Positions 7,271-50,277 of a DNA stretch of 56,096 nt are shown here, in pieces. Origin of the DNA: Flavobacterium sp. (GTDB taxonomy: Bacteria > Bacteroidota > Bacteroidia > Flavobacteriales > Flavobacteriaceae); the NCBI RefSeq assembly GCF_044368995.1, contig NZ_JBIPMS010000001.1, forward strand, positions 1 through 56,096. The letters run 5' to 3'. Both the position numbers and the translations under genes were made by a program. Position 1 is the first letter of the stretch. Each line of letters opens with the position of its first letter. The notes under the pieces are model-generated. The model made no database searches. It was given only the letters and a program-made list of their open reading frames with translations, and was not told the origin of the DNA.

Positions 7271-7357
7271 AAAGTAATTAGTGAAAAGTAAAAAGTGATT
7301 AGCAAGTTTAATTTAAAGGTTTTCACTATTGACTTTTTACTTACCACTAGTTACTCA
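7271..7357. repeat. Inverted 7-bp-period array (hairpin)
   Basis: Left arm AAAGTAA TTAGTGA AAAGTAA AAAGTGA TTAGCAA (7271-7305). Right arm TCACTAT TGACTTT TTACTTA CCACTAG TTACTCA (7323-7357) is an approximate reverse complement. Confidence 0.75.
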
Positions 7358-7707
7358 ATAATCTCTTTTTCTAAAAAATAATTCACGATGGCTTCTTTCA
7401 TTAAAACCGATTGCTCTCCTGCTTTTAGTGGTGGAAGTTCTTTTACAACTTTATAATGTGGCCAGCCATCTTTATCAAAAAATTCAAATTCGTAATATCC
7501 GTAAGGTTCTAATAGTTTACAAATGGCAATGTGCATCAGGTTTACTTTTTCGTCTTTTTTAAATTCCATATTTATTTTCCCTAATTCTTGCACGCCAATT
7601 AAATAAATAATGGCATCTAAATCCAACACTTCACCATCGGCAAATTTTTCAGATAAAAAAGCCACTACTTTTTCCCAGCGTTCTTTTAATTGTATATCTC
7701 TAGACAT
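7351..7707 (-). CDS. Conserved-looking hypothetical protein (118 aa)
   Basis: Clean ORF with ATG, a TATCTTTG promoter on the minus strand at 7725-7732, and a 'IYLIGVQELG...DGWPHY' core. Function not recognised. Confidence 0.75.
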   Translation of the reverse strand: MSRDIQLKERWEKVVAFLSEKFADGEVLDLDAIIYLIGVQELGKINMEFKKDEKVNLMHIAICKLLEPYGYYEFEFFDKDGWPHYKVVKELPPLKAGEQSVLMKEAIVNYFLEKEIIE

Positions 7708-7784
7708 TTATATTTTGTTTTTTACAAAGATAGTATTTGAGGTTTGCATTTTGTAGTTTTGTTTTTATAAAATATATATAATTT

Positions 7785-8318
7785 ATGGAATTTATTGATA
7801 TTGTTTTTGCCGTCTTATTAGGGTACAGTATATATAATGGGTTAAAAAACGGTCTTTTTGTAGAAATAGCTTCTTTTAGTTCTTTAATTGTAGGGATATT
7901 TGTAGCTATAAAATTTTCGCATATTGTTAGATTGACTTTAGAAGAAAAAATAAAAACCAATCCAAAATACATTGAAATTATTGCTTTTGCCATTACTTTT
8001 ATTTTAGTGCTTATTGGCATTCATTTATTGGCAAAATTTTTTACAAAGATAGTAAGTTTTGCCTATTTAGGTTGGCTAAATAAATTAGGAGGCGCTATTT
8101 TTAGTATGCTAAAAACCATTTTAATGTTAGGTGTTTTAATAAGTTTGCTTCAAAGAATAAATAGTAATGGGATGTTGGTAAAACAAGAAACACTAAACCA
8201 ATCTTTATTTTATCAACCTGTCCAAGAAGTTTCTAAATTTATATTACCAAACTTGGGGAAATGGTACGAAGAAGTAAAAGAACGAACAAAAGAAAAACCG
8301 GAGAACAAAAACAAATAA
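7785..8318 (+). CDS. cvpA: CvpA family (colicin V production) membrane protein
   Basis: Hydrophobic, with 'IDI....L..SIYNGLKNGLF.E' and 'LNKLGGAIFS.LK'. TAGTTTTG promoter at 7754-7761. Confidence 0.85.
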   Translation: MEFIDIVFAVLLGYSIYNGLKNGLFVEIASFSSLIVGIFVAIKFSHIVRLTLEEKIKTNPKYIEIIAFAITFILVLIGIHLLAKFFTKIVSFAYLGWLNKLGGAIFSMLKTILMLGVLISLLQRINSNGMLVKQETLNQSLFYQPVQEVSKFILPNLGKWYEEVKERTKEKPENKNK

Positions 8319-8437
8319 TTAATAAAAATTAATCATTAACATCTCATTAACACAATAAATAGCGTGGAGTAACAACATTAATTAAAAAAATAAATACATT
8401 TGTACTATTAATAATAACTAATTTAAATATAATAATT

Positions 8438-8890
8438 ATGAAAACAGTAAAATTACTTGCATTTGCTTTATTAATGAGCTCAATTTCATTTGCTCAAACT
8501 CCCGCGCCAGCTGCTGTTGCTGTTCCAGCTTCACCGCAAACACCATCTCAAATGAAATGGGAAAAAGAAACGCACGAATTTGGGACTATTGAACAAGGGA
8601 AACCAGTTTCTTACGAGTTTACTTTTACCAACTCTACTAACAAAGATGTTACTTTAAAGGATGTAAAAGCATCTTGTGGATGTACAGCAACTAATTACAC
8701 AAAAACTGCGATCAAACCAGGTGAAAAAGGAACAGTAACAGCTACTTATAACGCAGCTGCAGGCGGTGCTTTTCACAAAACGGTTACAGTAACCACAAGC
8801 GAAGAAAATGCTATGCCAAAAACAATAACAATCAAAGGAACTGTTAAAGTTAATGAAGCACCAGCAGTAGCTGCTCCGGCTTCAAAATAA
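8438..8890 (+). CDS. DUF1573 domain secreted protein
   Basis: Signal peptide and 'HEFGTI...F.FTN...V.ASCGCT....IKPGE.G' motif. TACATTTG promoter at 8395-8402. Confidence 0.85.
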   Translation: MKTVKLLAFALLMSSISFAQTPAPAAVAVPASPQTPSQMKWEKETHEFGTIEQGKPVSYEFTFTNSTNKDVTLKDVKASCGCTATNYTKTAIKPGEKGTVTATYNAAAGGAFHKTVTVTTSEENAMPKTITIKGTVKVNEAPAVAAPASK

Positions 8891-8907
8891 TTTTATCTCT
8901 AATATTT

Positions 8908-8945
8908 AAAAACCCGATAAAATACTTTTTATCGGGGTTTTTTTA
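8908..8945 (+). terminator. Intrinsic terminator
   Basis: AAAAACCCGATAAAA-TACT-TTTTATCGGGGTTTTTTTT. Confidence 0.8.
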
Positions 8946-9030
8946 TGGAAACTAAATTATACAATAGCATTTTAATAATTTATTCCTCATATTTATTAGA
9001 AAATTCAGATTATATCTAGTATTATTTTAC

Positions 9031-9058
9031 AAAAAAAGAGTCCTACTAGAACCCTTTT
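9031..9058 (-). terminator. Probable terminator of S8 peptidase gene
   Basis: Minus strand reads AAAAGGGTTCT-AGT-AGGACTCTTTTTTT, with G-U pairs. Confidence 0.55.
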
Positions 9059-9065
9059 AATTTGA

Positions 9066-12023
9066 TTATCTTGTTAAAACAATTTTCTTGGTTGTTTTAG
9101 AACTTCCGTTTTCTATGGTGATTAAATATACCCCATCAGATAAATTAGAAATATTGATATTGTCTATAGTACTAATCATTTCTTTAGTTGAAATTATTCT
9201 GCCTTGTATATCATATAGTTTTACTATTGAATTACTTTCTAAATTTTGATTACCCAAATCAATATTTACAATTCCAGTAGTTGGATTAGGATATATTTTT
9301 AAGTTAGAAAAAGCAGTATCTTCAATTGCAAGCGGTACCTGGATGCTACAAATTTGAAGTTTCACAGAATTGATTGTTCCGCCATCGCCATTTTCTCCAT
9401 CAGAAACAATTAAATTCCAAGTACCGTCAGCTGGTAATCCATTTAAATCAGTAAGCGTTTGTTGCGGTTGAACAGTTCCAGAAATAGCCGGATTTGTACC
9501 ACAAACTAAAGGCGTGCCACTATCATCAACAATACAATTTATATTATCATTTCCAACACAAACACCATTAAATAAGGTAATCATTGGACTTCCAATACTT
9601 ACAGGTCCTTGAAGTCTTACATTTGCTTCTTCTACATAGGTATGAGAGATATCTAATTGAATATTAATATCTCCAATAGTTAATCCACCAGTTACTATGA
9701 TAGGAACTATTGCTAAGGCAGTATTAGTGGTATTTATAATATTATTTGAAAAGTCGGTTGCTATAAATTCGTTTCCACAAGATAAAACGCCTGTTTGGAA
9801 CGTATTAACTGTACCTGAAGATGTTGGCGCACCACCACATCGGTTTAAAGGCAAAACTCTCCAGTAATAGTAAGTTTCTTGACTTAAATTTGAAACTACA
9901 AATGAGTTTCCAGTTGTATTAACGTCGGTAATTAATGTTGTGAAATTTGGTGAAGTTGAAAGTTGAACATTATATATTTCAGCGTTTTCACTAGTGTTCC
10001 AAGTTAAATTAACTGTAGTTGCAACCGTATTTTGATTATTTACCGGAGTGTTTAATACAATTGGGCTAAATGCACTATTATAAACTTTTAATCCTTTAAA
10101 ACGCGTTTCAGTTTCCGTTCCATTATTACCAATAATTCCTACATTGTAGGTACCAGGAACTACATTAGATAAATTAGAAACGGTCATAGTAACTGGACCA
10201 TTTGAATTTCTAGAAGTTGGGGAGAAAACTACATTTGCGCCACTTGGCAATCCTACTGCACTAAAGTTAGTTGTTGTTGCACTAGATTGAGAATAATTGA
10301 ATGTGTAAACTGCGGCTTGATTGGCACAAACTTCAAGATCATTAGAAGTAGAAATAATTGCAAATCCAGAAGTAACACCTGTAATAATTAATGAAAAATC
10401 TTGTTTGTTAGTTTCAAGGGTTCCTTTGTGAGTAACTGTTATTACATAATCTCCGGCAGGCGGAGCATCTATTTTTACTTGCTCTACGTTGTCGATATTA
10501 TTATCTCCAACTCTAGTTGCATCAAGAGTTGGGTCTGAATCTAATTTCCATGGATAATAAGTAGTTCCGTTTCTTGTGATTCTAACATCTAAATCGTTTA
10601 CAAGTGCGCGAGTTAAATCGTTTGCTGCTCTTTCACCATTATTGGCATCACCAGGAATATCCGTCCAACAAGCAGTAGCCATTAAAGGAGTTGTTCCTAA
10701 AGACTTAACTGTAATTGTGTAAGTTTGTCCTTGATTTAGTCTTTCTTCAGAAATCCAAGAATTTAGACCATTTGATGATATGGCTTGAGCCGCAGCTTTT
10801 GCATTTAATAAACCCCAACCAAAAATTGCATCTGGTCCTACGTTTCCAGAATCATCAGCTGTATGACAAGCTAAACCTTTTAAAGTGGAAGCTTTCATGA
10901 AATTATTGGTTATATTTTTATAATGTTGTTGTAATAATAATAAAGTTCCAGCTACATTTGGCGAAGACATTGATGTTCCAGATGATACATAGGTTAAGCT
11001 ATTACTTGAACCACTTGTAGATGTTAAAAATGTCCCGTTCCCTGTTAAATCCGGTTTTATTCTTCTATCATCAGTCGGTCCTTGGCTACTTGAACTATTA
11101 ATTAACAATGGAGTAGTTAAATTTCCCGCTTCATCAATTTCTGCATCTTGAGCATTAGCAATAACTAAATTGTTTTTAGCTGTTTTATTTCCAGTTAATT
11201 TATCATAACCAAAATAAATAGGCTCGGCATTATTTTGATCAGTACCTGAATTTCCTGCTGAAGCAACCATTAAATAGTAGGGTGATAAATAGGCTATTTC
11301 ATCCCAGTTTCTTGCGTCAGAATCATACGTTCCGATATACCAAGCTGGCAACGTTACAAACGGAGGATTTTGATTTGTCACAGGCACACCATAAGAATGG
11401 TTTGAAATCAACATCCCTAATAAAACTTCTGATAGCACTTCGTTTTCATCATCATTCCAATCGAAAGTTCTTCCTGTAGCCTCATAAGCCATACCTCTAA
11501 TAGTAGGAGATCCATTTGCTAAAACAGTACCCGTTACGTGTGATGCATGAGAAGAATAAGAAGTTCCGCTTGGGTCATCCACACTTTCAACTCTACCACC
11601 ATAATGATTATGCTGTGTTCTAACTTTTCCTCCATCCCATACTCGTGCTACCATTCCTTGTCCATTTAAAGTAAGGCCAAGTGATCCATTTGTATTCAAA
11701 TGAATAGCTCTAGTTGATCTTGCCGCATCTTGGTTTTCTGTTGCATAGTACAAAGGATGCCCGTCTGAAGTCAATCTCATTAATTGATGAAAATTTCCTT
11801 TTTTATCAGTATAACTTAATGGAATGTTATTTTCTAGAGCATATTTATAAGCTCTTGTTCTTTCTTTTTCTTCTAAAATTTTGAATTCCTTGGCCTTACT
11901 TTTAATTAGTGCAACATCGTAATCTTTAGTGATATTTATAATGTCTTTTTCAGATTGGCTATATGCAAAAAGACTTGTAAAGTATAGAGATAATATAAAT
12001 ATTTTATTTTTCATTTTTTTCAT
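9066..12023 (-). CDS. S8 (subtilisin) serine peptidase with P-domain and T9SS type A C-terminal domain
   Basis: Catalytic motifs VWDGG, HASHVTGT and SGTSMSSPNV. A proprotein-convertase-like P domain follows. The CTD reads 'IYPNPT...YDIQGR...LSDGVYLI...KKIV'. TATATTTG promoter at 12046-12053 (minus). Confidence 0.92.
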   Translation of the reverse strand: MKKMKNKIFILSLYFTSLFAYSQSEKDIINITKDYDVALIKSKAKEFKILEEKERTRAYKYALENNIPLSYTDKKGNFHQLMRLTSDGHPLYYATENQDAARSTRAIHLNTNGSLGLTLNGQGMVARVWDGGKVRTQHNHYGGRVESVDDPSGTSYSSHASHVTGTVLANGSPTIRGMAYEATGRTFDWNDDENEVLSEVLLGMLISNHSYGVPVTNQNPPFVTLPAWYIGTYDSDARNWDEIAYLSPYYLMVASAGNSGTDQNNAEPIYFGYDKLTGNKTAKNNLVIANAQDAEIDEAGNLTTPLLINSSSSQGPTDDRRIKPDLTGNGTFLTSTSGSSNSLTYVSSGTSMSSPNVAGTLLLLQQHYKNITNNFMKASTLKGLACHTADDSGNVGPDAIFGWGLLNAKAAAQAISSNGLNSWISEERLNQGQTYTITVKSLGTTPLMATACWTDIPGDANNGERAANDLTRALVNDLDVRITRNGTTYYPWKLDSDPTLDATRVGDNNIDNVEQVKIDAPPAGDYVITVTHKGTLETNKQDFSLIITGVTSGFAIISTSNDLEVCANQAAVYTFNYSQSSATTTNFSAVGLPSGANVVFSPTSRNSNGPVTMTVSNLSNVVPGTYNVGIIGNNGTETETRFKGLKVYNSAFSPIVLNTPVNNQNTVATTVNLTWNTSENAEIYNVQLSTSPNFTTLITDVNTTGNSFVVSNLSQETYYYWRVLPLNRCGGAPTSSGTVNTFQTGVLSCGNEFIATDFSNNIINTTNTALAIVPIIVTGGLTIGDINIQLDISHTYVEEANVRLQGPVSIGSPMITLFNGVCVGNDNINCIVDDSGTPLVCGTNPAISGTVQPQQTLTDLNGLPADGTWNLIVSDGENGDGGTINSVKLQICSIQVPLAIEDTAFSNLKIYPNPTTGIVNIDLGNQNLESNSIVKLYDIQGRIISTKEMISTIDNINISNLSDGVYLITIENGSSKTTKKIVLTR

Positions 12024-12145
12024 TTTTTTAGTAAATTTTGGTAAGCAAATATATTAATTTAAGTTTTAATAACAATATCATGTTTTTAAATTATCGAACT
12101 TTAACATTTGTTATCTAATCTATTAATTTACTTTTTTGATGTTAT

Positions 12146-13747: not shown

Positions 13748-13810
13748 TTGTTTGAATTTTGAAGCGTAAAGTTACGGATATCACACAAGCTTTCCAAAAG
13801 TTTTCTGTTT

Positions 13811-13843
13811 CACCTGCAAGGTCTTTTTTTGACCTTGTAGGTG
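13811..13843 (+). repeat. REP-like palindrome (left of RAYT gene)
   Basis: CACCTGCAAGGTC-TTTTTTT-GACCTTGTAGGTG, a 13-bp stem with one G.T pair. Confidence 0.85.
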
Positions 13844-13913
13844 TTTATCTATACCTTGAAGGATTATTTCGTATTTTGTTATTTAATAGCTATTTATGTT
13901 TAAAACAATTTTT

Positions 13914-14462
13914 TTATTCTAGCTTTTGCTTTTCAGATAATATTTCATTTTTAAAATCGTGACAATAAATAAAATTGTCTATATTTTCAAATAAATGAAC
14001 CACTTCATTTCTTAATAAGTGAGTTGGTTTATCTGAAAGAATTGCTTTGTAGGAAGAAAAAGAAAAGCTTTTATAATCTATGTCCAAGTGATGTTTTGGA
14101 TTTAGATGAATATACTGAATTACATTTTTTAAATATTCTTCATTTTCAATTTGTATTCTTTTGAAATGTTTTTCAAATAAACTTCCAGTTCTATTATTTT
14201 GTTTGTTAAATGCTTTTGCATAAGCGTTAAATAAATTCGATAGTGCTTGTGTCACTTCTTTTTCATTATTAATTTGAAACACAAAATGAAAATGATTATC
14301 CATTAAGCAATAGGCAAAAGTTTCTACTTTACGTTCTAAATATTTCAAATATAGTTTTAGAAAGTAGCGTTTATTTTCATCAGTATTGAAAATAGTTTCA
14401 CCATTAATACCTCTGTTATAGATGTGATAAACTTTGTCTTTTTCTAAAATTTCAAGTTTCAT
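13914..14462 (-). CDS. REP-associated tyrosine transposase-like protein (Y1_Tnp / HUH superfamily)
   Basis: N-terminal YHIYNRG, 'AYCLMDNHFH' (HUH motif), 'RTGSLFE..FK' and catalytic Tyr in 'YIHLNP'. ATG start at 14462 is preferred. Confidence 0.9.
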   Translation of the reverse strand: MKLEILEKDKVYHIYNRGINGETIFNTDENKRYFLKLYLKYLERKVETFAYCLMDNHFHFVFQINNEKEVTQALSNLFNAYAKAFNKQNNRTGSLFEKHFKRIQIENEEYLKNVIQYIHLNPKHHLDIDYKSFSFSSYKAILSDKPTHLLRNEVVHLFENIDNFIYCHDFKNEILSEKQKLE

Positions 14463-14542
14463 TTGGCGTTTATTTTTCAACTATAAGGTTTCAATAACCT
14501 TTTTGGTCTTGCTTATTATTGGTTTATTTTTATAATTTTATA

Positions 14543-23949: not shown

Positions 23950-25110
23950 TTATAATGTTCCTCTTTTGGCTTGTTCTCTTTCGATAGACTCAAAAAGCGC
24001 TTTAAAGTTTCCTGCTCCAAAACCTCTAGCTCCCATTCTTTGAATAACTTCGAAGAAAAGAGTAGGTCGGTCTTCAATTGGTTTGGTAAAAATTTGTAAC
24101 AAATACCCTTCTTCATCCGCATCAATCATAATACCTAATTTTTGAAGTTCGTTGATGTCTTCTTTAAATTTCGACATGTGATCTTTCAATCTTTCTGGAA
24201 TGGCATCATAATAAGCTTGTGGCGGTGTGCTTAAAAATTCAATTCCACGAGAACGCATATCAGCAACTGTTGTAATAATATCATCCGTAGCAACTGCAAT
24301 ATGTTGCACGCCTTCGCCTTCATAGAAATCTAAATATTCTTCAATTTGAGAACGTTTTTTTCCTTCAGCGGGTTCGTTAATTGGAAATTTAATTCTTCCA
24401 TTGCCATTACTCATTACTTTCGACATCAATGCCGAATAATCTGTAGTAATTTGTTTGTCGTCAAAAGAAAGAAAATTAACAAATCCCATTACATCTTCAA
24501 ACCATTTTACAGCTTCATTCATTCTGTTCCAGCCCGTATTTCCAACCATGTGGTCAATAAACTTTAAACCAACTGGTTTTGGATTATAATCAGATTTCCA
24601 TTCTTGATAACCAGGCATGAAAATTCCGTTGTAATTTTTTCGTTCTACAAAAACAAACACCGTTTCTCCATAGGCACCATAAATTCCTGCACGAACTACT
24701 TCGCCATCTTCGTCTTTTTCAACAACTGGCTCAAAATAAGATTTTGCTCCACGTTTTGTGGTTTCTTCAAATGATTTTCTGGCATCTTCTACCCAAAGTG
24801 CGATAACTTTTACACCATCACCATGTTTTTTTACGTGTTCGCCAATGGGTGAATTGCTGTTTAAAGCCGTTGTTAATACTAAACGTATTTTGTCTTGTTT
24901 CAATACATAAGACGCTCTGTCTCTTACGCCAGTTTCTAATCCGGCATAAGCCAATGATTGAAAACCGAAAGCTGTTTTGTAAAAATGAGCAGCTTGTTTA
25001 GCATTACCCACATAAATTTCCACGTAATCTGTTCCTAATAAAGGCAAGAAATCTTGTGCGCCTTCAAATATTTTTTCTAAGCCGTATTCGACTGATTTTA
25101 AATCTTTCAT
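23950..25110 (-). CDS. hppD: 4-hydroxyphenylpyruvate dioxygenase
   Basis: Motifs IDHMVGN, FPINEP, SQIEEYL, GVQHIA, LLQIFTKP, FFEVIQR, GFGAGNFKALFESIE. Confidence 0.97.
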   Translation of the reverse strand: MKDLKSVEYGLEKIFEGAQDFLPLLGTDYVEIYVGNAKQAAHFYKTAFGFQSLAYAGLETGVRDRASYVLKQDKIRLVLTTALNSNSPIGEHVKKHGDGVKVIALWVEDARKSFEETTKRGAKSYFEPVVEKDEDGEVVRAGIYGAYGETVFVFVERKNYNGIFMPGYQEWKSDYNPKPVGLKFIDHMVGNTGWNRMNEAVKWFEDVMGFVNFLSFDDKQITTDYSALMSKVMSNGNGRIKFPINEPAEGKKRSQIEEYLDFYEGEGVQHIAVATDDIITTVADMRSRGIEFLSTPPQAYYDAIPERLKDHMSKFKEDINELQKLGIMIDADEEGYLLQIFTKPIEDRPTLFFEVIQRMGARGFGAGNFKALFESIEREQAKRGTL

Positions 25111-25126
25111 ATTAATTTGTGATTTT

Positions 25127-25140
25127 AATAATTAGCGAAT
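25127..25140. repeat. Inverted-repeat arm downstream of four-helix-bundle gene
   Basis: AATAATTAGCGAAT is the exact reverse complement of ATTCGCTAATTATT at 25614-25627. Confidence 0.8.
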
Positions 25141-25167
25141 AGAAAATTGGTTTGTACTTGCTAATTT

Positions 25168-25542
25168 CTATGTTCGTATATTATTTTTCGTTGTGCTTAT
25201 TATTTTGTTTAACATTTTTATTATTCCATTTAATTTATCAATTAACCCTTCCGGATTAGGATAATTTTCTAAATTTTCACACAGAAAAAGCCAGTATTCT
25301 GTTTCGTCAGCTTCTTTTAATGAAACTTTAAGTTTGTGAACAAAATCAGCTTTGCTTTCTGCATTTTGAGCTTCTTTGATATTTGCACCAACAGATGTTC
25401 CAGAACGAACTAATTGTTTTGCTATTATATATTTTCTTTTTTCATCAAGCAATTCGGCATATTTTATTACCATTAACGCAAACTCAAAAGATTCTTTCAA
25501 GATAGGGTTGTTTTGATATTTTGAACTGTTTGTGAATTTCAT
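25168..25542 (-). CDS. Four-helix-bundle protein (23S rRNA-IVS protein / Avd-like family)
   Basis: Family signature 'QLVRSGTSVGANIKEAQ.AESKADFVHKLKVSLKEADETEYWL'. 124 aa. Confidence 0.92.
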   Translation of the reverse strand: MKFTNSSKYQNNPILKESFEFALMVIKYAELLDEKRKYIIAKQLVRSGTSVGANIKEAQNAESKADFVHKLKVSLKEADETEYWLFLCENLENYPNPEGLIDKLNGIIKMLNKIISTTKNNIRT

Positions 25543-25548
25543 TTAAAA

Positions 25549-25628
25549 AATTAGTTAATAAACGGTTTAGTTAATTATCGAATTAAATCATTCGCTAATT
25601 CGCTCAATTATAAATTCGCTAATTATTC
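25549..25628. repeat. 8-bp-period degenerate array filling the hmgA / four-helix gene gap
   Basis: AATTAGTT AATAAACG GTTTAGTT AATTATCG AATTAAAT CATTCGCT AATTCGCT CAATTATA AATTCGCT AATTATTC. Confidence 0.75.
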
Positions 25629-26780
25629 CACCCAAGATTTATAATATTTCCCATCATCTAATCCCATTGCAGCTTCTGTAACCATTAATGGACGGAACGT
25701 GTCAACCATAACTGCTAATTCTTTAGTTTCGGTATGGCCAATGCTTCTTTCCATAGCGCCTGGTGCTGGTCCGTGAGGAATTCCTTTTGGATGTAAAGTG
25801 ATGTGACCTTGTTCGATGTTGTTTCTACTCATGAAATCCCCATCAACATAATACAACACTTCATCAGAATCAATATTGCTATGATTATATGGAGCAGGTA
25901 TTGATTTTGGATGATAATCGTATAATCTTGGCACAAAAGAACATACTACAAATGTTGCTGTTTCAAAAGTTTGGTGAATAGGTGGCGGCAAATGTACACG
26001 ACCTGTAATGGGTTCAAAATTGTGAATTGAAAATCCGTACGGAAAATTGTAACCGTCCCAACCGATAACATCAAAAGGATGAGTGGCATAAACCACTTCG
26101 TGCATCATACCTTCTTTTTTGATTTTGATTAAGAAATCACCTTTTTCGTCATGCGTTTCTATTTCAGAGGGTAATTTAAAATCCCTTTCACAAAATGGCG
26201 CATGTTCTAAATGCTGCCCGGAATCATTTTTATATCTTTTTGGGGTATAAAAAGGTGTATAAGATTCTACATAAAATAAGCGATTGTCTTCAGAATTGAA
26301 ATCAATTTGATAAATCATTCCGCGTGGAATAATTAAGTAATCGCCATATTCAAAATCTATATTTCCCATCATGGTTCTAAGTTTTCCAGAACCTTTATGG
26401 ATAAATATCATTTCGTCTGCATCGGCGTTTTTATAAAAATAATTACGCAATGATTTTTTTGGTGCAGCTAATCCGATAATACAATCTTTATTAACAAGCA
26501 TATCTTTTCTGCTTTCTAAAAAATCGTCGGCGGGTTGTAATTCAAAACCTTTTAATAATAGTGATTTTATGTTTTTACCAATGGCTATTTTTGGTTCAAC
26601 AGAATAAGATTTGGTAATTTCTTTAACCTGTGTTGGTCTATGAACATGGTATAATAGTGAAGAATGTCCATGAAAACCTTCAGTACCAAAAAGTTGTTCG
26701 TAGTATAACCCGCCGTTTGGGTTTTCAAACTGGATATGTCGTTTGTGAGGGATTTCTCCTAATTTATGATATATTGGCAT
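25623..26780 (-). CDS. hmgA: Homogentisate 1,2-dioxygenase
   Basis: Motifs NADADE, HPFDVIGWDG, HLPPPIH, PYNHSNIDSDE, TLHPKGIPHGP, ELAVMVDTF. Confidence 0.95.
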   Translation of the reverse strand: MPIYHKLGEIPHKRHIQFENPNGGLYYEQLFGTEGFHGHSSLLYHVHRPTQVKEITKSYSVEPKIAIGKNIKSLLLKGFELQPADDFLESRKDMLVNKDCIIGLAAPKKSLRNYFYKNADADEMIFIHKGSGKLRTMMGNIDFEYGDYLIIPRGMIYQIDFNSEDNRLFYVESYTPFYTPKRYKNDSGQHLEHAPFCERDFKLPSEIETHDEKGDFLIKIKKEGMMHEVVYATHPFDVIGWDGYNFPYGFSIHNFEPITGRVHLPPPIHQTFETATFVVCSFVPRLYDYHPKSIPAPYNHSNIDSDEVLYYVDGDFMSRNNIEQGHITLHPKGIPHGPAPGAMERSIGHTETKELAVMVDTFRPLMVTEAAMGLDDGKYYKSWVE

Positions 26781-26788: not shown

Positions 26789-26851
26789 AATTAGATAATT
26801 AGACAATAAAATAATTAGTTAATTTGCAAATTACATATTATATAATTAGCA
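26789..26851. repeat. 8-bp-period array immediately upstream of hmgA ATG
   Basis: AATTAGAT AATTAGAC AATAAAAT AATTAGTT AATTTGCA AATTACAT ... AATTAGCA. Confidence 0.75.
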
Positions 26852-26862
26852 CATAAAACTAC

Positions 26863-26925
26863 TCACTCAGGATTTCTCTTGATGAGGAATTTTAAGTGGG
26901 CTAATAATCCGTTCCAGTTTTCCAT
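26863..26925 (-). other. Candidate leaderless uORF / leader peptide MENWNGLLAHLKFLIKRNPE
   Basis: ATG 26925 lies 5 nt after a -7-like GACATTTG (26930-26937, minus). 20 codons, then TGA. No other support. Confidence 0.3.
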
Positions 26926-28522: not shown

Positions 28523-30772
28523 TTAAAAAACGAATCCTAAATTCACCCAAAAAGCGGAAAAATTGGATTCAGGAGACCAAGTATATTTCATTTCAATTGG
28601 CCCTATTAATGTTTCTAATCCGTAACCCAATCCAAATCCGGTATTTGAGGGTTTGTTAAACCATGTTTTTGTGGCATTAAAAATAAAATCGCCCACAATT
28701 GAAGCGTTATAGGTTAAGTTAATGTGATTTTTTTTGTAAAATTCGTAATCAAAAGTCGCACTACTTTTAATATAGGAATTTCCACTTATACTTAAAAAAT
28801 CATATCCGTAAAAAGGGATGATATTAGCACTGTCTTTGAATCCAGTTCCTCCTAAAGCAAAATCAAAATAGGGCAATGTAGAATGACCTATTTTAAAACC
28901 AATTTCGTTTTTAAAGACTACAGAGAAGTTTTTTATTGGAGCAACAGCAATTCCTAAATCTGTTTTAGAGATAGAAAATTTTGAAAATTGATTGTTATAA
29001 TCTGACGAACTAAAATAATAATTAAAGTTACTCTTTAAATACCAACCTTTTTTCGGAAAATATTTATCATCAAAAGTATCATAATTAAGAAAACCAACTA
29101 ACGAAAAATAGTTACTGTTTTCGATTACTTTATTGGCTTTTGACAAATTTTCTGATTTTAAAAAGAGGTTTTGAAATTCTAATCCGCCACCGATATTAAA
29201 TTTTCTTAAGAAAATAGTTTGTAGAAACACTTTGGTGTTGACACTTGAATAATCTAAATTTATCTTATCAAACGCGTTGCTTAGATAACTTTGAATTCCA
29301 AATGCTGTATTTACATTTTTATTAAAATTATTTAAACTGGAGTTAATTCCGAAGCTAAAATTATAACCATTATCTATCAAGTAATTGAAATCATACCTGA
29401 AATTATCGCCTAAAATTAAATCTAAAGAAACCATGTCGTTTTTTGAGATTATTTTTTTTTGAGAGATATTAATTAATGCGGCACTTTTATACAATTCATC
29501 ATAATGAAGTGCGAATTTTAAATAAGTATTTATCTTATTTTCCCTTAAACTAATAAAAATATCTTTTTCGTTAAATTGATATTTTAATGAACTAAAGTTT
29601 TGTGTGTTGCTTAAATTTTGAATACCGTTTTGAAAATCTTCAAAGCTTACTTTTGAGTTGGGTTTAAATCTTAATTTTCCTAAAACATAAGCGCGGGTAT
29701 AATTTTTTAATTCTGTAAAAGCAATATTTCCGATAAAAATGGAATCTTTAACAAGCTTTAACTTAGGTTTTTGATATGCTTTGTTTTCAAATTTTAGTAA
29801 TTCTGATAAAAAATTTCTCGTAGCATACTCCCCATTTTGAATGATTTTTTTTCCATTTTCGAAGGATAGAACAGAATACCCTTTTATTTCAGGTTTGATA
29901 TAAATATTAGTAAGTTGGCGCTTACTTTTCATTTGAGATTGTGTATAGAAATTAGAAATTTGTCCAAAAATAGTAGTAATACCTTGCAACTCATTTCGGT
30001 CTTTCAATTCCTCTTGTACATCAACACCTATAATAAATTCGGCACCCAATTCTTTAAGTCTTTCAATAGGATAATTATTTGTAACACCGCCATCAACTAA
30101 TAGTTTTCCTTCAATTTCAATGGGATAAAAAATACTTGGAACAGAACTACTTGCTATTAATGCTTGTGGAAAAATTCCTTTATTTAATAAGATTTCTTCG
30201 CCAGTTTCGATATCTGTAGCCATACAGAAAAACGGAATTGGCAATTTTTTAAAATCTCGTGTGTTTCTAACGTGATAAGTTATTTTTGATAAAAAATTGT
30301 AATTGTAAAACCCTTTTGAAAGGGCATTTGGCGTTTCGAGCTTTAATTTTTTAAAGGGTAGAGACAAAGCATAAATATCATCATTTCTTTTATTGAAAAG
30401 TAACTTAGATTTTCGGGGGATGTTATCTTGTACTAAATCGTCAAATTCTAATGTTTTAAATATAGAATCTAATTGTTTACCTGTATATCCAGAAGCGTAT
30501 AATCCACCTACAATAGCGCCCATACTGGTACCTCCAATGTAATCTATTTTTATACCTAAAGAATCAATTACTTTTAGAACACCAATATGTGACAATCCTT
30601 TTGCGCCTCCACCAGAAAGCACCAATCCTATTTTAGGCTTTTGGATACTGTCTTGAGCAATTGTGTAAGCAGGCAAAAGTAAGCAGGCAAAAGTAAAAAG
30701 TATAAAACAAGAAAATGTACCACGAATGTGATTCACTTTGCTTTTTTTACTTTTTACTTGTTTCTTTATCAC
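28523..30772 (-). CDS. Patatin-like phospholipase with C-terminal beta-barrel (PlpD-like)
   Basis: LSGGGAKG, GTSMG nucleophile and DGG motifs, then a POTRA/Omp85-like C-terminus ending in Phe. GTG start. Confidence 0.9.
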   Translation of the reverse strand: MIKKQVKSKKSKVNHIRGTFSCFILFTFACLLLPAYTIAQDSIQKPKIGLVLSGGGAKGLSHIGVLKVIDSLGIKIDYIGGTSMGAIVGGLYASGYTGKQLDSIFKTLEFDDLVQDNIPRKSKLLFNKRNDDIYALSLPFKKLKLETPNALSKGFYNYNFLSKITYHVRNTRDFKKLPIPFFCMATDIETGEEILLNKGIFPQALIASSSVPSIFYPIEIEGKLLVDGGVTNNYPIERLKELGAEFIIGVDVQEELKDRNELQGITTIFGQISNFYTQSQMKSKRQLTNIYIKPEIKGYSVLSFENGKKIIQNGEYATRNFLSELLKFENKAYQKPKLKLVKDSIFIGNIAFTELKNYTRAYVLGKLRFKPNSKVSFEDFQNGIQNLSNTQNFSSLKYQFNEKDIFISLRENKINTYLKFALHYDELYKSAALINISQKKIISKNDMVSLDLILGDNFRYDFNYLIDNGYNFSFGINSSLNNFNKNVNTAFGIQSYLSNAFDKINLDYSSVNTKVFLQTIFLRKFNIGGGLEFQNLFLKSENLSKANKVIENSNYFSLVGFLNYDTFDDKYFPKKGWYLKSNFNYYFSSSDYNNQFSKFSISKTDLGIAVAPIKNFSVVFKNEIGFKIGHSTLPYFDFALGGTGFKDSANIIPFYGYDFLSISGNSYIKSSATFDYEFYKKNHINLTYNASIVGDFIFNATKTWFNKPSNTGFGLGYGLETLIGPIEMKYTWSPESNFSAFWVNLGFVF
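30665..30766. repeat. Inverted 7-bp-period array inside patatin signal-peptide coding region
   Basis: GTAAGCAGGCAAAA x2, GTAAAAA, GTATAAA (30665-30706) versus TTCACTT TGCTTTT TTTACTT TTTACTT GTTTCTT (30732-30766). Confidence 0.75.
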
Positions 30773-32563: not shown

Positions 32564-32598
32564 TTTTAGTATGCAGTGTTCAGTTTTTAGTATTCAGT
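32564..32598 (-). repeat. Five 7-bp units abutting uvrC start codon
   Basis: Sense strand: ACTGAAT ACTAAAA ACTGAAC ACTGCAT ACTAAAA ATG. Confidence 0.75.
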
Positions 32599-36961: not shown

Positions 36962-37096
36962 TAAGTTATTCCTAAATTATTCTTTTTCAAAACCGCATAA
37001 TTAGCCTACATTTGTAGATTATAAAACGAATTAAAACAATTTTAGTTTCAATATTTTATTGATTTTTGAAATTGTTATTGAATTTTGAAATTGAAT

Positions 37097-43253: not shown

Positions 43254-43270
43254 TATTTTAAATCGTTTTG

Positions 43271-44701: not shown

Positions 44702-44703
44702 CT

Positions 44704-45174: not shown

Positions 45175-45283
45175 TTATTTTTTTAATAATCGTAAAGATA
45201 GGAGTAAAAATTATTAAATTGCAGTAAAATAGGTTTCTAAACTATTAAATTTTTAATTCAAACGTTGTAGTTGATAAAATAAT

Positions 45284-46033: not shown

Positions 46034-46037
46034 GAAG

Positions 46038-47291
46038 TTATTCTTCTAATTTTTTGAAAAGCACACAAGCATTATGTCCGCCAAATCCAAAAGTATTACT
46101 CATTGCTACTTTTATTTCTCTTTTTTGTGGCGTGTTTAATGTCAAGTTTAATGATGGATCAATATTTTCATCTACTGTGGTGTGGTTTATTGTTGGAGGA
46201 ACAAGACTGTGTTTCATTGCTAATATCGAAGCAATCGCTTCAATCGCTCCAGCAGCACCTAACAAATGCCCTGTCATAGATTTTGTAGAATTGATATTTA
46301 TATTTTTAGCGTGTGCACCAAAAACATGGCTTATTGCTTTTAATTCTGCAACATCCCCCAAGGGTGTTGAAGTTCCGTGCGTATTAATGTGATCTACTTC
46401 TTCGGGTTTCATACCTGCATCGCGTAATGTATTTTCCATTACTGCAATAACTCCAATTCCTTCGGGATGGGGTGCTGTTAAGTGATAGGCATCAGATGAC
46501 ATTCCGCCACCACCAACTTCACAATATATTTTTGCACCACGTGCTTTTGCATGTTCATATTCTTCAAAAACTAAGGCGCCTGCACCTTCGCCCAAAACAA
46601 ACCCATCTCTGTTAGCATCAAACGGTCTAGAAGCCGTTTCTGGCGAATCGTTTCTTGTAGACAACGCTTGCATAGAGTTAAAACCACCCATTCCGGCAAT
46701 GGTTACTGCTGCTTCCGAACCTCCAGATACAATTACATCACACATTCCTAAACGTATGTAGTTAAAAGCGTCAATCATAGCATTTGCAGAAGAAGCACAA
46801 GCGGAAACTGTTGTATAGTTTGGACCCATAAAGCCATTTCTCATAGAAATATGAGCGGGGGCAATGTCGGCAATCATTTTAGGAATAAAAAACGGATTAA
46901 AACGAGGTGTTCCGTCTCCTTTAGCATAACTTAGTACTTCTTCTTGGAAAGTTTCCAAACCACCAATTCCTGCACCCCAAATTACACCTACTCTTTGTTT
47001 ATTTACGTTTGAATCTAAAATACCTGCGTCTGCAATGGCTTGTTCACCAGCCACAATGGCATATTGTGCAAATTTATCCATTCGTCTTGCTTCTTTTCTA
47101 TCGATAAATTCTTCGATATTGAAGTTTTTTACTTCACAAGCAAATTTCGTTTTATGTTTTTCAGTGTCATAATAAGTAATTGGCGCAGCACCGCTTTTTC
47201 CACTAATTAAGGCATTCCAATATTCTTGAATGTTGTTTCCAATTGGAGTTAGTGCTCCAAGCCCTGTAACCACTACACGTTTTAATTGCAT
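46038..47291 (-). CDS. fabF: 3-oxoacyl-ACP synthase II
   Basis: Motifs RVVVTGLG, SACASS, HGTSTPLGD, KSMTGHLLGA, NTFGFGGHN. Confidence 0.97.
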   Translation of the reverse strand: MQLKRVVVTGLGALTPIGNNIQEYWNALISGKSGAAPITYYDTEKHKTKFACEVKNFNIEEFIDRKEARRMDKFAQYAIVAGEQAIADAGILDSNVNKQRVGVIWGAGIGGLETFQEEVLSYAKGDGTPRFNPFFIPKMIADIAPAHISMRNGFMGPNYTTVSACASSANAMIDAFNYIRLGMCDVIVSGGSEAAVTIAGMGGFNSMQALSTRNDSPETASRPFDANRDGFVLGEGAGALVFEEYEHAKARGAKIYCEVGGGGMSSDAYHLTAPHPEGIGVIAVMENTLRDAGMKPEEVDHINTHGTSTPLGDVAELKAISHVFGAHAKNININSTKSMTGHLLGAAGAIEAIASILAMKHSLVPPTINHTTVDENIDPSLNLTLNTPQKREIKVAMSNTFGFGGHNACVLFKKLEE

Positions 47292-47444
47292 AAATTATTT
47301 TTTAGTTATATAGAAAAACCCAATGTGCATATTTTAAATATTAACATTGGGTATTACATAAATGTCTTATGTGAATGATTGTAATACAATCAATGTTTTT
47401 ACAAATCTAAACAAAGATTTTTAAAAACAGAAACAAAAAATAAC

Positions 47445-47478
47445 AACATCCGTATAAAAAAATTCATACGGATGATTG
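47445..47478 (-). terminator. Terminator/attenuator after acpP
   Basis: CATCCGTAT...ATACGGATG stem, with A-rich run on the plus strand (U tail on minus). Confidence 0.65.
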
Positions 47479-47482
47479 GTTA

Positions 47483-47719
47483 TTATTTCTTAGCTTCTTC
47501 GATGTAAGAAATTGCTTGACCTACAGTAGCAATGTTTTCAGCTTGGTCGTCTGGAATTTGGATGTCAAATTCTTTTTCGAATTCCATGATAAGCTCTACA
47601 GTGTCTAATGAATCAGCACCTAAATCGTTAGTGAAGCTTGCTTCTGTTACTACTTCGTTTTCGTCAACACCTAATTTGTCCACGATAATCGCTTTTACTC
47701 TTGATGCAATGTCTGACAT
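47483..47719 (-). CDS. acpP: Acyl carrier protein
   Basis: [14 protein letters not shown] phosphopantetheine site. 78 aa, acidic. Confidence 0.99.
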
Positions 47720-47963
47720 AATTTTTAATTTTTAATTTATTTGTTTGCAAAAATAAAAAACTTTATTTTAAAACAACATTTTTGTTAGTAAATATAACAA
47801 CGAATGTATAAAAAAAACTTAAAATACCCTAATTCTCTATGCTTTTCATTTAAAATAATTTTTAATTTCTTTTAATTTTTGCCATTAAACCTAAATGAAT
47901 TTATACTTTTGTGTGATATTTATATGATTTATTGCTTCAATAAGTTTAAAAAAACAGAATGAA

Positions 47964-48527
47964 ATGAAGAAGATTGTGCTTTTTGCTTCTGGAAACGGTT
48001 CTAATGCCGAAAATATTATGGCATATTTTGACATGTCTAATGCAGTTTCAGTTGTTGGTGTATTTTCGAACAATTCTGAAGCTAAAGTAATTGAAAGAGC
48101 TAAAAAATTTAAAATCCCAACTTTTGTTTTCAATAAAAAGGAACTTTCAGAGAATACGGTTTTAAGCCAGCTGAAGCAATTGCAACCAGATTTAATTGTG
48201 TTAGCAGGTTTTTTATTAAAGTTTCCCATTCATATTATTAACGAATTTCCAAGTAAAGTGATTAATATTCATCCAGCTTTGTTGCCTAATTATGGCGGAA
48301 AAGGCATGTTTGGCATAAACGTACACAACGCGGTATTAAAAAATAAAGAAAAAGAAACAGGAATTACTATACACTATGTAAACGAACATTTTGACGAAGG
48401 CGAATTTATTTTTCAAGCCAATGTAACTATTGAAAATTGTACAACTGCAGATGAAATCGCAAAAAAAATTCACGAATTGGAAATGGAACATTTTCCGAAA
48501 GTTATTGAGAGATTTTTAGAAGGTTAG
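47964..48527 (+). CDS. purN: Phosphoribosylglycinamide formyltransferase
   Basis: Motifs FASGNGSN, LAGFL, INIHPALLP, GITIHYV...DEG. Confidence 0.95.
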   Translation: MKKIVLFASGNGSNAENIMAYFDMSNAVSVVGVFSNNSEAKVIERAKKFKIPTFVFNKKELSENTVLSQLKQLQPDLIVLAGFLLKFPIHIINEFPSKVINIHPALLPNYGGKGMFGINVHNAVLKNKEKETGITIHYVNEHFDEGEFIFQANVTIENCTTADEIAKKIHELEMEHFPKVIERFLEG

Positions 48528-48602
48528 ACTTCATAGTTAGTCAAACCGCAATATTTTCTTAATTTCAACATCTAAAAATCTAACCTTCTAACAATCTAAT
48601 TA
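48510..48602. repeat. Inverted 8-bp-period (TTAGA/TCTAA) array spanning purN stop to rnhA start
   Basis: TTAGAAGGTTAGA (48516-48528) is the reverse complement of TCTAACCTTCTAA (48579-48591). AGATTTTTAGA (48510-48520) is the reverse complement of TCTAAAAATCT (48571-48581). Confidence 0.8.
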
Positions 48603-48609
48603 ATCAAAA

Positions 48610-49089
48610 ATGCCCTACCAAGTTCACATTTATACAGATGGCGCTGCCAAAGGAAATCCAGGCCCTGGCGGTTATGGTGTGGTAATGGAAATGGTAGGTT
48701 CGCCTTATAAAAAAGAATTTTTTGAAGGATTTAGGCATACTACTAATAACAGAATGGAATTATTAGCTGTAATTGTAGGTTTAGAAAAATTGAAAACGCC
48801 TAAAACCACTGTTTTGGTAGTTTCAGACTCTAAATATGTTGTAGATTCAGTAGAAAAAGGTTGGGTGTTTGGATGGGAGAAAAAATACTTCAAAGACAAA
48901 AAAAACCCCGATTTATGGATGCGCTTTTTAAAAATTTATAGGCAACATCAAGTGAAATTCATGTGGATTAAAGGCCATAACAACCATCCTCAAAACGAAC
49001 GCTGCGACCAATTAGCCGTGATGGCCTCGCAACAAAAAAAATTAAATATTGATACCTTTTACGAAACGGAAGAACAGAAATTGTTATAA
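48610..49089 (+). CDS. rnhA: Ribonuclease HI
   Basis: Motifs IYTDGA.KGNPGPGG, TTNNRMEL, SDSKY, KNPDLW, WIKGH, NERCDQLA. Confidence 0.97.
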   Translation: MPYQVHIYTDGAAKGNPGPGGYGVVMEMVGSPYKKEFFEGFRHTTNNRMELLAVIVGLEKLKTPKTTVLVVSDSKYVVDSVEKGWVFGWEKKYFKDKKNPDLWMRFLKIYRQHQVKFMWIKGHNNHPQNERCDQLAVMASQQKKLNIDTFYETEEQKLL

Positions 49090-49108
49090 AATACTTTTTA
49101 AACTAATT

Positions 49109-50158
49109 TTATTCTTCGTTTATAGCATTCCAGCCTCTGGCTTTTAGTTCAATTTTTGTGTTGGCACGAGTCACCAAATGCATGCCTTCGCTTTCTGCAA
49201 CCATATGACCAATAATGGTAAAATTTGGATTGTGTTTTATTTTTTCAAAATCTTCCATTTTAATGGTAAAAAGCAATTCGTAATCTTCTCCTCCATTTAA
49301 GGCAATAGTTGTAATATCTACATTAAATTCTTCACACACATTAATTAATTGTGGATCTACCGGAATTTTTTCTTCATATACATTACACCCTAATTTACTT
49401 TGCTTACAAATGTGCATAATTTCAGAGGACAATCCGTCTGAAATATCAATCATAGCTGTGGGTTTTACTTCTAATTTTTCCAATAATTCTTTCACGTCAT
49501 TTCTAGCTTCTGGCTTCAATTGACGTTCAATTAAATAAGTATAATCGTCTAAAACAGGTTGGTTGTTTGGGTTGACTTGAAACACTTGTTTTTCTCTTTC
49601 CAAAACTTGTAACCCCATATAAGCCGCGCCTAAATCGCCAGAAACAACCAATAAATCAGTTTGTTGTGCGCCATTTCGGTAGGTAATTTCTTCTAAATTC
49701 GACTCGCCAATAGCCGTAATACTAATAATTAATCCTTTTTGAGAAGAGGTGGTGTCGCCACCAATTACATCTACATTATAAGCGTTGGCTGCTAAAGTAA
49801 TTCCTGCAAAAAGTTCTTCCATAGCTTCTAACGGAAAACGATTAGAAACCGCCACCGAAATGGCAACCTGTGTTGGCACTGCATTCATCGCACAGATGTC
49901 TGAAATAGTAGACACAATTGCTTTGTATCCCAAATGTTTTAAAGGCATGTAACTTAAATCAAAATGTACGCCTTCTACTAATAAATCGGTAGAAATTACT
50001 ACTTTTTTGTCTTTAAAATCTAAAACAGCGGCATCGTCACCAATACTTTTAAGCGTACTTTCTTGATTAATTTTGAAATGTTTGGTTAAATGTTCAATTA
50101 ATCCGAATTCACCTAAACTGGCAATGCTCGTTGTTTTTTGATCTTTATTTTCTAACAT
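49109..50158 (-). CDS. thiL: Thiamine-monophosphate kinase
   Basis: Motifs GEFGLI, IGDDAAV, EGVHF, SDICAM, GGDT, DISDGL, GGEDYEL. TATCTTTG promoter at 50175-50182 (minus). Confidence 0.96.
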   Translation of the reverse strand: MLENKDQKTTSIASLGEFGLIEHLTKHFKINQESTLKSIGDDAAVLDFKDKKVVISTDLLVEGVHFDLSYMPLKHLGYKAIVSTISDICAMNAVPTQVAISVAVSNRFPLEAMEELFAGITLAANAYNVDVIGGDTTSSQKGLIISITAIGESNLEEITYRNGAQQTDLLVVSGDLGAAYMGLQVLEREKQVFQVNPNNQPVLDDYTYLIERQLKPEARNDVKELLEKLEVKPTAMIDISDGLSSEIMHICKQSKLGCNVYEEKIPVDPQLINVCEEFNVDITTIALNGGEDYELLFTIKMEDFEKIKHNPNFTIIGHMVAESEGMHLVTRANTKIELKARGWNAINEE

Positions 50159-50189
50159 GATGGATTATTTTTTGCAAAGATAGGAAATT

Positions 50190-50277
50190 AATGCGCCAAT
50201 TGATTAATGTGTCAATGTGCCAATTAGATAATTATTCTTAATGGCAAATTGAAAATTGGCTAATTATCTAGTTGCTT
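50190..50277. repeat. Inverted 8-bp-period array overlapping recX stop
   Basis: AATGCGCC AATTGATT AATGTGTC AATGTGCC AATTAGAT AATTATTC ... AATTGGCT AATTATCT. CAATTAGATAATTA (50221-50234) and TAATTATCTAGTTG (50261-50274) form a 13/14 inverted match. Confidence 0.8.

Follow-up and report, generated by a model that had tools for sequence, protein, structure and literature searches.

Heptamer and octamer arrays dispersed in a Flavobacterium genome match clade-specific cassettes of a four-helix-bundle protein gene

The 56,096-nt stretch of Flavobacterium sp. DNA analysed here (positions 1 to 56,096, forward strand, of contig NZ_JBIPMS010000001.1, RefSeq assembly GCF_044368995.1; hereafter the window) contains eight arrays of 7- or 8-bp period, two of which enclose a gene for a four-helix-bundle protein and form a cassette with it. 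Our favoured explanation, which we consider somewhat probable, is that gene-less arrays are copies of cassette arms, spread by the matching four-helix protein through ring binding and host recombination. It builds on the architecture of the cassettes, the clade-specificity of their repeat units, the abundance of arrays away from the gene, which tracks the cognate protein clade (two families), the types of allele at orthologous loci and the occupation of genes by arrays read in frame. The window corresponds to contig C161 of a 1.9-Mb assembly (90.7% complete), and its DNA is also contained in lake metagenomes. All eight tracts were confirmed, and they are given here with two genes of the window.

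25168-25542, minus strand: four-helix-bundle gene (124 aa) between hmgA and hpd, in the filled cassette; TIGR02436 / PF05635 (23S_rRNA_IVP)
25549-25628, minus strand: period-8 upstream array of the filled cassette (AATTAGCG type); hmgA stop codon inside; ends 6 nt 5' of the four-helix ATG
25127-25166, minus strand: period-8 downstream two-armed hairpin of the filled cassette, before hpd; hairpin z -5.8
7271-7357, minus strand: gene-less two-armed period-7 array (AAGTAAA/TTTTCAC type), upstream of pheS; stop codon of a 118-aa gene inside; hairpin z -5.7
26789-26851, minus strand: gene-less period-8 array (AATTATCT type); ends 8 nt 5' of the hmgA ATG; folds weakly
28523-30772, minus strand: patatin/Omp85 outer-membrane protein gene (Pfam Patatin and Omp85_2), N-terminus encoded by an array; compared with 30 orthologue N-termini
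30665-30766, minus strand: two-armed period-7 array inside the patatin/Omp85 open reading frame; hairpin z -3.7
32564-32598, minus strand: single C arm (ACTGAAC type) abutting the uvrC ATG (0 nt); family of the C173 cassette
48510-48602, plus strand: gene-less two-armed period-8 array (TTAGA/TCTAA type); family of the C61 cassette; hairpin z -6.0
50190-50277, minus strand: gene-less two-armed period-8 array (AATTAGCC/TTGGCACA type); recX stop codon inside; family of the C11 cassette

A preliminary description of this DNA had reported the eight arrays and their relations to stop and start codons, and both proved correct when coordinates and open reading frames (ORFs) were rechecked; its gene labels also agree with NCBIfam and Pfam. 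Four stop codons (118-aa gene, hmgA, purN and recX) lie inside arrays, array 48510-48602 encoding the last purN codons as well, and the uvrC stop is about 10 nt away from array 30665-30766. Besides the distances listed above, an array ends 7 nt before the rnhA ATG; gene starts were taken from a simple ORF caller, so that all distances to ATG codons are approximate. The arm order described earlier (AGT/TAG arm 5', ACT/CTA arm 3') was seen again as a G-rich 5' arm and a C-rich 3' arm. Because the arrays are degenerate, strict autocorrelation (22 of 30) caught just three of the eight. An Rfam search of the window gave no match. The arrays are degenerate, paired in inverted orientation and located beside or inside housekeeping genes, and do not have the character of phase-variable simple sequence repeats.

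A further degenerate array of 6/7-base period (TTGAAAT type; 37037-37093, plus strand) ends just 5' of the lepA ATG and is probably a ninth member, missed by the preliminary description.

The product of the gene between hmgA and hpd scores 97.2 bits against TIGR02436 (cut-off 24; E = 6e-28) and 82.1 bits against PF05635 (cut-off 33.8; E = 4e-23), and is homologous to the five-chain PDB entry 2RLD (E = 2.5e-25). Its predicted model consists of four helices (predicted local distance difference test, pLDDT, 95.4) and is matched by Foldseek to 2RLD and 2GSC with a template modelling (TM) score of about 0.8; a weaker fold match links it to Avd (4DWL/8UB7; TM 0.64-0.71, E 0.19-0.35, 11% identity). 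By analogy with the five-chain entries 2RLD and 2GSC, and with PMC4990558, the protein would be a homopentamer.

Eight TIGR02436 genes, one of them with an early stop, are present in the genome, and all eight are bracketed by inverted arms (read by eye). The cassettes have either a G-rich arm 5' and a mirror C-rich arm 3' or a two-armed hairpin on each side, and the repeat unit differs from paralogue to paralogue. For the window cassette, pairing of the arms around the ORF has z of only -1.2, and a hairpin stands on each side. For Flavobacterium as a whole, 159 loci were reduced to 129 non-redundant near-full-length proteins, whose best flank period is 7 in 59 cases and 8 in 46 (7 have another period and 17 have none) and whose flank units group by protein clade. 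In 122 of 128 cases, pairing between the upstream and downstream flanks of one cassette is better than the average over about 20 flanks of other cassettes (z < -2 in 85 of 128, and in just three of eight in this genome). Period-8 flanks were found at 68 of 80 GTDB loci of the window's clade, as compared with 11 of 80 control windows; the 81 loci of this clade are distributed over about 20 neighbour pairs. Cassettes reach up to 16 copies per genome. The preliminary description had inferred one dispersed element family tied to four-helix genes: the tie stood, whereas the one family turned out to be many, each matched to a protein clade.

In genome G000, three genes encode GxxExxY proteins (TIGR04256; C27:3575, C31:2249 and C39:1690), and the flanks of those on C27 and C31 contain inverted repeats of about 9 bases (read by eye). 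Gene-less two-armed arrays of about 9-base period occur at the hmgA-hpd junction of two relatives (L035, L036). The GxxExxY genes may possibly constitute a sister system of period 9.

The gene-less arrays of the window could be assigned to cassette clades by the 10-mers they share with cassette flanks: five of the six share 19-63 with the flanks of one clade. Thus array 48510 has 51 10-mers in common with the C61 cassette, array 32564 has 22 in common with C173 and array 50190 has 19 in common with C11. Arrays 7271 and 30665 share 33 and 63, respectively, with cassette flanks of the relative G034 (at most two, for array 7271, with any cassette of this assembly); the clade that matches both is present in G034 and was not found in this assembly. 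The sixth, array 26789, maps weakly (11 10-mers) to the period-8 clade.

The same relationship was observed across 151 Flavobacterium genomes. At least five matches to AGTCRAAAGTCRAAAGTC (AGTCRAA arrays) were found in 24 of the 31 genomes that have clade A and in 23 of the 120 that lack it (odds ratio 14.5), and at least five to ATAGARWATAGARWATAGA (TAGARWA arrays) in 18 of the 25 genomes that have clade B and in 17 of the 126 that lack it (odds ratio 16.5). The crossed odds ratios both equal 1.0, which constitutes a double dissociation. The preliminary description had proposed a correlation of array number with four-helix gene count; the total count is a weak predictor (rho 0.22) and the cognate clade a strong one. 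Most of these matches lie in trans: of the 18 clade-B genomes with such arrays, 14 were listed by position, and 13 of these have at least three sites elsewhere than at the gene (in a fifteenth, G067, every match is at the gene), and in eight listed clade-A genomes at most two matches are at the cassette. With cassettes masked, this genome and its sister G056 (about 93% identical) differ as predicted (AGTCGAA, 21 vs 5; TAGAAAA, 8 vs 19). Moreover, the mean repeat profile similarity is 0.33 for 48 pairs of cassettes at different sites with protein identity of at least 65%, compared with about 0.10 for 82 pairs at the same site below 65% and a background of 0.03. The repeat follows the protein rather than the site.

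Extreme expansions of single families were observed in G027 (247 AGTCRAA matches) and G123 (273 TAGARWA matches). Both genomes contain the cognate clade, the G123 gene with an internal stop, and both are good candidates for an active system.

Arrays of this kind are abundant in the genome, which contains 141 segments of period 7 and 71 of period 8, compared with 5-25 at periods 4, 5, 10, 11 and 13. Period-7 arrays are present in 91 and period-8 arrays in 56 of 1185 intergenic regions; five dinucleotide shuffles gave 2-6 and 1-7, respectively. Between co-directional genes (regions of 40-400 nt, our own ORF calls), 68 of 96 arrays have their first base no more than 10 nt from a stop or their last base no more than 12 nt from a start, while random placement yields 51.0 +/- 4.0 and none of 2000 draws reached 68. 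The placement at gene junctions claimed in the preliminary description therefore holds genome-wide as an enrichment, with array 30665-30766, inside an ORF, as an exception in the window. Stop-proximal units are G-rich (17 with G>C, 5 with C>G; n=31), start-proximal units are C-rich (13 with C>G, 3 with G>C; n=23), and this G-then-C polarity is fixed on both strands. Divergent intergenic regions are depleted in arrays (12/219, compared with 127/966 of the others). The median arm comprises 4.5 units (interquartile range 3.5-5.3), a value biased by detection.

It had further been suggested that a period not divisible by 3 supplies stop codons in all frames and so makes insertion harmless. The first part does not hold throughout: one frame is free of stops in array 25127 and likewise in array 30665, and stop-free repeat units enter genes in frame. 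As to the second, a stop triplet occurs in 20 of 26 units overlapping a stop and in 52 of 92 elsewhere (p 0.07), and shifts of stop codons between the sister genomes are not commoner beside arrays (2/63 vs 28/420), so the supply of stops would be at most a weak filter. Rewriting of stop codons was rejected as a general effect, for want of any enrichment of such shifts, although purN does show it across three species.

Comparison of orthologous loci revealed filled, empty and swapped alleles. At the hmgA-hpd junction (30 of 141 matches cut out as loci), four of the 29 closest relatives shown have the four-helix gene with period-8 arms; in two relatives whose HmgA is 99% identical the junction is 57 nt long and array-free, and many others contain unrelated palindromes. 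The preliminary description had named three outcomes that would count against it, namely no positional enrichment, no correlation with four-helix genes and no filled and empty alleles at orthologous loci; in each case the opposite was found.

Several unrelated small palindromic elements use the same landing spots, the hmgA-hpd junction and a loop of leuS: a palindrome of GTCATTGCGAG or GTCATCCTGAG type occurs in frame at the leuS loop (L185, L210) and also at hmgA-hpd (L016, L021, L025, L028). In four DNA contig sets, a single joint skipping 25106-25673 was seen, in one contig; at 88% likeness this contig is probably from another species, and the joint was not counted.

Array turnover is seen at the other sites of the window too. 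The site of array 26789 before hmgA is occupied by other repeat families in relatives; recX-thiL has a period-8 family here, a period-7 family in G056 and none in G034; purN-rnhA has other elements and other purN C-termini in G034 and G025; and the uvrC array 32564-32598 is absent in G034. The comparison with G056 covered 1.64 Mb of its approximately 2.0 Mb and paired 760 intergenic regions. Blocks were replaced in 41 of 86 array-bearing and 45 of 335 other intergenic regions (length-matched subset; slippage within arrays contributes to the difference). Single arms switched family with intact flanks at C60:21513, C59:500 and C64:341, and a two-armed array was gained between a stop and a start at C60:28744 without target duplication (all read by eye); since an automated count of family switches (19/58) includes at least one false call, we rely on the cases read by eye. 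Neither target-site duplications nor fixed terminal inverted repeats were seen by eye at C60:28744 or at the leuS loop, two sites inspected outside any systematic screen. The idea of insertion at junctions was therefore only partly borne out: at the sites inspected arrays replace sequence without target duplication rather than insert cleanly, and they enter coding sequence as well.

Genome-wide, 26 period-7 segments lie in coding sequence, some of them by chance. The presence of arrays in frame was confirmed against orthologues for LeuRS and MnmE; further cases come from this genome only. The LeuRS loop is short and array-free in some orthologues and in others contains one or two arms of at least six array families (30 of 99 matches). 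In MnmE, two loops about 45 codons apart flank the conserved NKxD segment and are occupied by a G arm and a C arm of one family per genome; the 30 genomes compared (30 of 96 matches) display at least four such families. The own pairs of MnmE arms score 12.9 and crossed pairs 9.1 (0 of 10000 permutations), while same-family arms of strangers pair equally well; exact template-switch copying between the arms was rejected, the match being at the level of the family. In the patatin/Omp85 ORF, which has a GTG start at 30772 (ATG at that place in G034), the two arms of array 30665-30766 encode parts of a signal peptide predicted from charge and hydropathy only: its Lys-rich n-region comes from the G arm and its hydrophobic h-region from the C arm. 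A period-7 run was found in the 75 nt encoding this hydrophobic leader in nine of 30 orthologues (one partly masked), compared with one of 300 control windows; these leaders comprise at least five different units, while other orthologues keep a short MKK-type leader.

Two observations concern leuS itself. Identity of the gene (G000 C74:7498-10596 vs G056 C5) is only about 81%, compared with about 93% for the two genomes otherwise, a gap to which length differences contribute. In nine relatives (L302-L310: G049, G070, G007, G042, G058, G039, G053, G080 and G050) the LeuRS loop contains an in-frame insertion of 128-236 aa, in most cases with C-rich/G-rich palindromes on either side; in L314 these palindromes occur but the domain is absent. 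These long insertions were rejected as four-helix domains; presumably they resemble a DUF559/very-short-patch-repair nuclease domain, and they look like a parallel system of filled and empty elements inside an essential gene.

On the sense strand, five of the eight window arrays form hairpins with z -3.1 to -6.0 (7271, 25127, 30665, 48510 and 50190), two fold weakly (z -1.7 and -1.8) and the single-arm array 32564-32598 is unfolded. Such hairpins, like the depletion of arrays between divergent genes, would be expected if the arrays served an RNA-level regulon, the ring binding the repeat in mRNA hairpins at cistron borders and protecting, processing or coupling them, in the manner of the RNase III excision of rRNA intervening sequences, with arrays selected as binding sites. 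Binding of an RNA stem-loop by Avd (available text of bioRxiv 2023.10.23.563531) and the cutting of the Coxiella intervening-sequence stem at heptamer repeats by RNase III (available text of PMC4990558) lend this explanation some plausibility. We nevertheless judge it unlikely: the targets have no common function and turn over between sister genomes, cuts inside leuS or mnmE would destroy essential mRNAs, the antisense strand folds about equally well, single arms are common, and an MnmE arm pairs no better with its partner in the genome than with same-family arms of other genomes.

The fixed polarity on both strands can also be read as a trace of synthesis. In such a scheme the protein and a host polymerase would extend broken DNA at its 3' ends with the repeat, in a telomerase-like way, leaving two arms that are G-rich inward and enclose a spacer, host DNA or a gene. 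The lack of target duplications or fixed ends at the inspected sites, the degeneracy of units and the independent rewriting of single arms, the family-level rather than exact complementarity of MnmE arms around host sequence, and the role of the homologue Avd as a polymerase cofactor fit this scheme. No polymerase partner was found, however, ordinary short-tract recombination can yield the MnmE swap, and arm patterns of higher order shared by distant loci (the 51 10-mers of array 48510 and C61) point to copying from a long donor; we therefore regard repeat synthesis at breaks as improbable, more so than a regulon.

A number of results weigh against a role of the protein in spreading the arrays. 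The all-pairs Mantel test of protein against repeat is null (rho 0.037), and the link is confined to shallow clades, so that linkage alone can yield it. Abundant families exist for which no cognate gene was found in the assembly (AAATTCC, 28 arrays; ATTTACG, 20), clade-A arrays are still found in about one fifth of the genomes that lack clade A, and several families with a private gene do not differ between the sister genomes. The two families tested across genomes were scored with cut-offs chosen after the data had been seen (five matches; 76% identity for clade B), and the p-values are overstated because the 151 genomes are related. A single old site, hmgA-hpd, accounts for 43 of the 81 loci of the window's clade, a distribution compatible with descent, loss and ordinary gene exchange. 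The four-helix gene is not accompanied by any nuclease, transposase or reverse transcriptase, and reverse transcriptase (PF00078) had no match in the 90.7%-complete assembly, which leaves its absence from the organism unproven. Finally, this genome and G056 differ by 55 sharp-edged divergent blocks in 999 shared genes, of which 53 are without arrays, suggesting frequent short-tract recombination in this pair.

The block scan behind the last figure was a relaxed one, used since a first, strict scan gave three blocks and missed mnmE; with arrays at 2 of 55 sharp blocks and 3 of 491 controls, block exchange directed by arms was rejected as a genome-wide rule. The mnmE block itself extends from arm to arm (about 195 nt) and is about 50% identical to G056 inside near-identical flanks. 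As donor of this block only the close relative G112 came up (94%; next best 57%), and a tree of the inner segment (75 nt) was too short to resolve. As sharp blocks are common without arrays, this swap alone proves nothing, and ordinary short-tract exchange can carry the block; what such exchange leaves unexplained is the repeated writing of both MnmE loops in matching families.

Taken without any action of the protein, these points describe passive debris: cassettes are brought in by horizontal transfer and homologous recombination and lose the gene, arms grow by slippage and spread by gene conversion, and the protein does not read the repeat, its match to the unit being linkage. The null Mantel test with its link in shallow clades, arrays without cognate genes, short mosaic swaps without arrays and one dominant ancestral site all agree with this account, as do the slippage evident in long perfect runs and the frequency of broken four-helix genes. 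It is harder to reconcile with matched arms of at least four families bracketing conserved host coding sequence in MnmE, none of whose 30 orthologues showed a four-helix gene, with single arms that switch family in place between intact flanks, and with tens of trans sites that track one gene copy. We consider passive origin rather unlikely, though less so than either alternative above.

We return to spread by the four-helix protein, in which a gene and its cognate repeat together make up a selfish DNA. According to this model, the protein, predicted to form a five-part ring, would read the 7-8-base word of its own clade on single-stranded nucleic acid, as the analogy with Avd suggests; repeats of 7-8 bases do not keep step with the turns of double-helical DNA, and together with the median arm of 4.5 units and the analogy this is our basis for supposing direct binding. 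Bound protein would favour the copying of arms, either alone or together with the gene, into tolerant sites by replacement-type recombination, the strand exchange presumably being done by host enzymes. The bias towards stops, starts, loops and signal peptides would mostly reflect selection for harmless landings. That the four-helix protein is the cause of the spread is our inference from these patterns.

Parts of this picture have been published. An ORF-bearing intervening sequence (IVS) in the 23S rRNA of Coxiella burnetii has a variable number of tandem heptamers (GACAGAT) upstream of the ORF (available text of Warrier et al. 2016, PMC4990558); there, as here, the S23p/PF05635 protein is encoded inside inverted repeats. 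Unlike that IVS, the cassettes described here lie between protein-coding genes (hmgA and hpd in the window, outside any rRNA gene), have clade-specific units and are accompanied by many gene-less or in-frame copies. Heptamers have also been reported on their own: GGGAATC and GGGGA(C/T)T in Xanthomonas and Nostoc (Rehm et al. 2015, PMC4692102), and TAACTGA in Beggiatoaceae, Cyanobacteria and Bacteroidetes, with no evident mechanism (MacGregor 2015, PMC4679880). As far as the available texts go, these orphan heptamers resemble our arrays in period 7, in the G strand just after stops and the C strand just before starts, and in overlap with stop codons; further likenesses are the presence of stops in every frame, the occurrence of convergent pairs and rarity between divergent genes. 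They differ in that one unit is given per genome, while here numerous families of 7 or 8 bases coexist, every one of them linked to a protein clade. The positions and polarity of heptamers and the rRNA cassette are accordingly prior knowledge. The available text of MacGregor 2015 (PMC4679880) contains neither 'four helix' nor 'intervening', and that of Rehm et al. 2015 (PMC4692102), which was not searched for four-helix genes, reports no general link to mobile elements. Within the open-access literature (main texts), we found no paper linking the four-helix family to dispersed heptamer or octamer arrays. Dispersed repeats of cyanobacteria were reportedly treated by Elhai et al. in 2008.

Among known mobile systems, the closest in logic is that of repetitive extragenic palindromes and their REP-associated tyrosine transposases (REP/RAYT, REPtron; available text of Di Nocera et al. 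2013, PMC3733652), where a gene is flanked by its own repeat family, many copies lack the gene, gene variants are repeat-specific, and sites are extragenic with some intragenic. Gene-less copies tracking the cognate gene across genomes were likewise observed here for two families. In contrast to REP/RAYT, the eight arrays have no GTAG/CGTC tag and consist of degenerate tandem arms instead of fixed short palindromes, and the flanked gene encodes not an HUH transposase but a TIGR02436 helical ring, for which no catalytic site is recognised. Rickettsia palindromic elements and bacterial MITEs (miniature transposable elements with inverted repeats) also place palindromic DNA in frame in conserved proteins, sometimes as part of a signal peptide (available text of Delihas 2008, PMC2229807); the arrays described here differ in having no fixed length or terminal motif, in replacing loop codons and in arms that may bracket host coding sequence. 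Avd of diversity-generating retroelements (DGRs) has a related four-helix fold and is a pentamer in which five protomers contact an RNA stem-loop, flipped-out bases inserting between protomers (available texts of bioRxiv 10.1101/2023.10.23.563531 and PMC10053308), but identity is 11%, no reverse transcriptase was found in the assembly and the cassette has no template/variable repeat pair. The cassette/array system therefore belongs to none of the IVS, REP/RAYT, MITE and DGR classes.

The window does contain a gene resembling a REP-associated tyrosine transposase (13914-14480, minus strand; NF047646 below cut-off). Its flanking palindromes (CCTACAAGGT...ACCTTG(C/T)AGG) differ from the arrays, and it is absent from the aligned G056 region.

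Two other features of the window may be mentioned. A short ORF (MENWNGLLAHLKFLIKRNPE) upstream of hmgA (about 26850-26925, minus strand) is conserved in many relatives and is a possible leader or small peptide. One or more large ORFs with collagen-like Gly-X-Y repeats occupy 1-4814 (plus strand), with repeats of 9, 54, 81 and 309 bases that are unrelated to the arrays.

A broader formulation, which we put forward only tentatively and hold to be doubtful, is that four-helix-bundle (IVS/Avd-like) proteins drive transposase-free selfish DNA in a sequence-specific way, the 7- or 8-base word of each clade being written or copied in place, in mirror image, at both edges of a piece of host DNA and repeatedly recoding gene ends, enzyme loops and whole signal peptides. 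If true, it would explain bacterial heptamer repeats and provide a naturally occurring collection of small rings that differ in nucleic-acid specificity. The association reported here joins two old puzzles, namely why heptamers are the commonest long simple repeats of bacteria and what the protein of rRNA intervening sequences does. It also supplies cognate and non-cognate pairs for binding assays and knock-out evolution tests (for example AGTCRAA for clade A, TAGARWA for clade B and the period-8 AATTAGC for the window's clade). Should the protein indeed drive the spread, these elements would represent mobile DNA without a recognised transposase, reshaping essential proteins and signal peptides between sister species.

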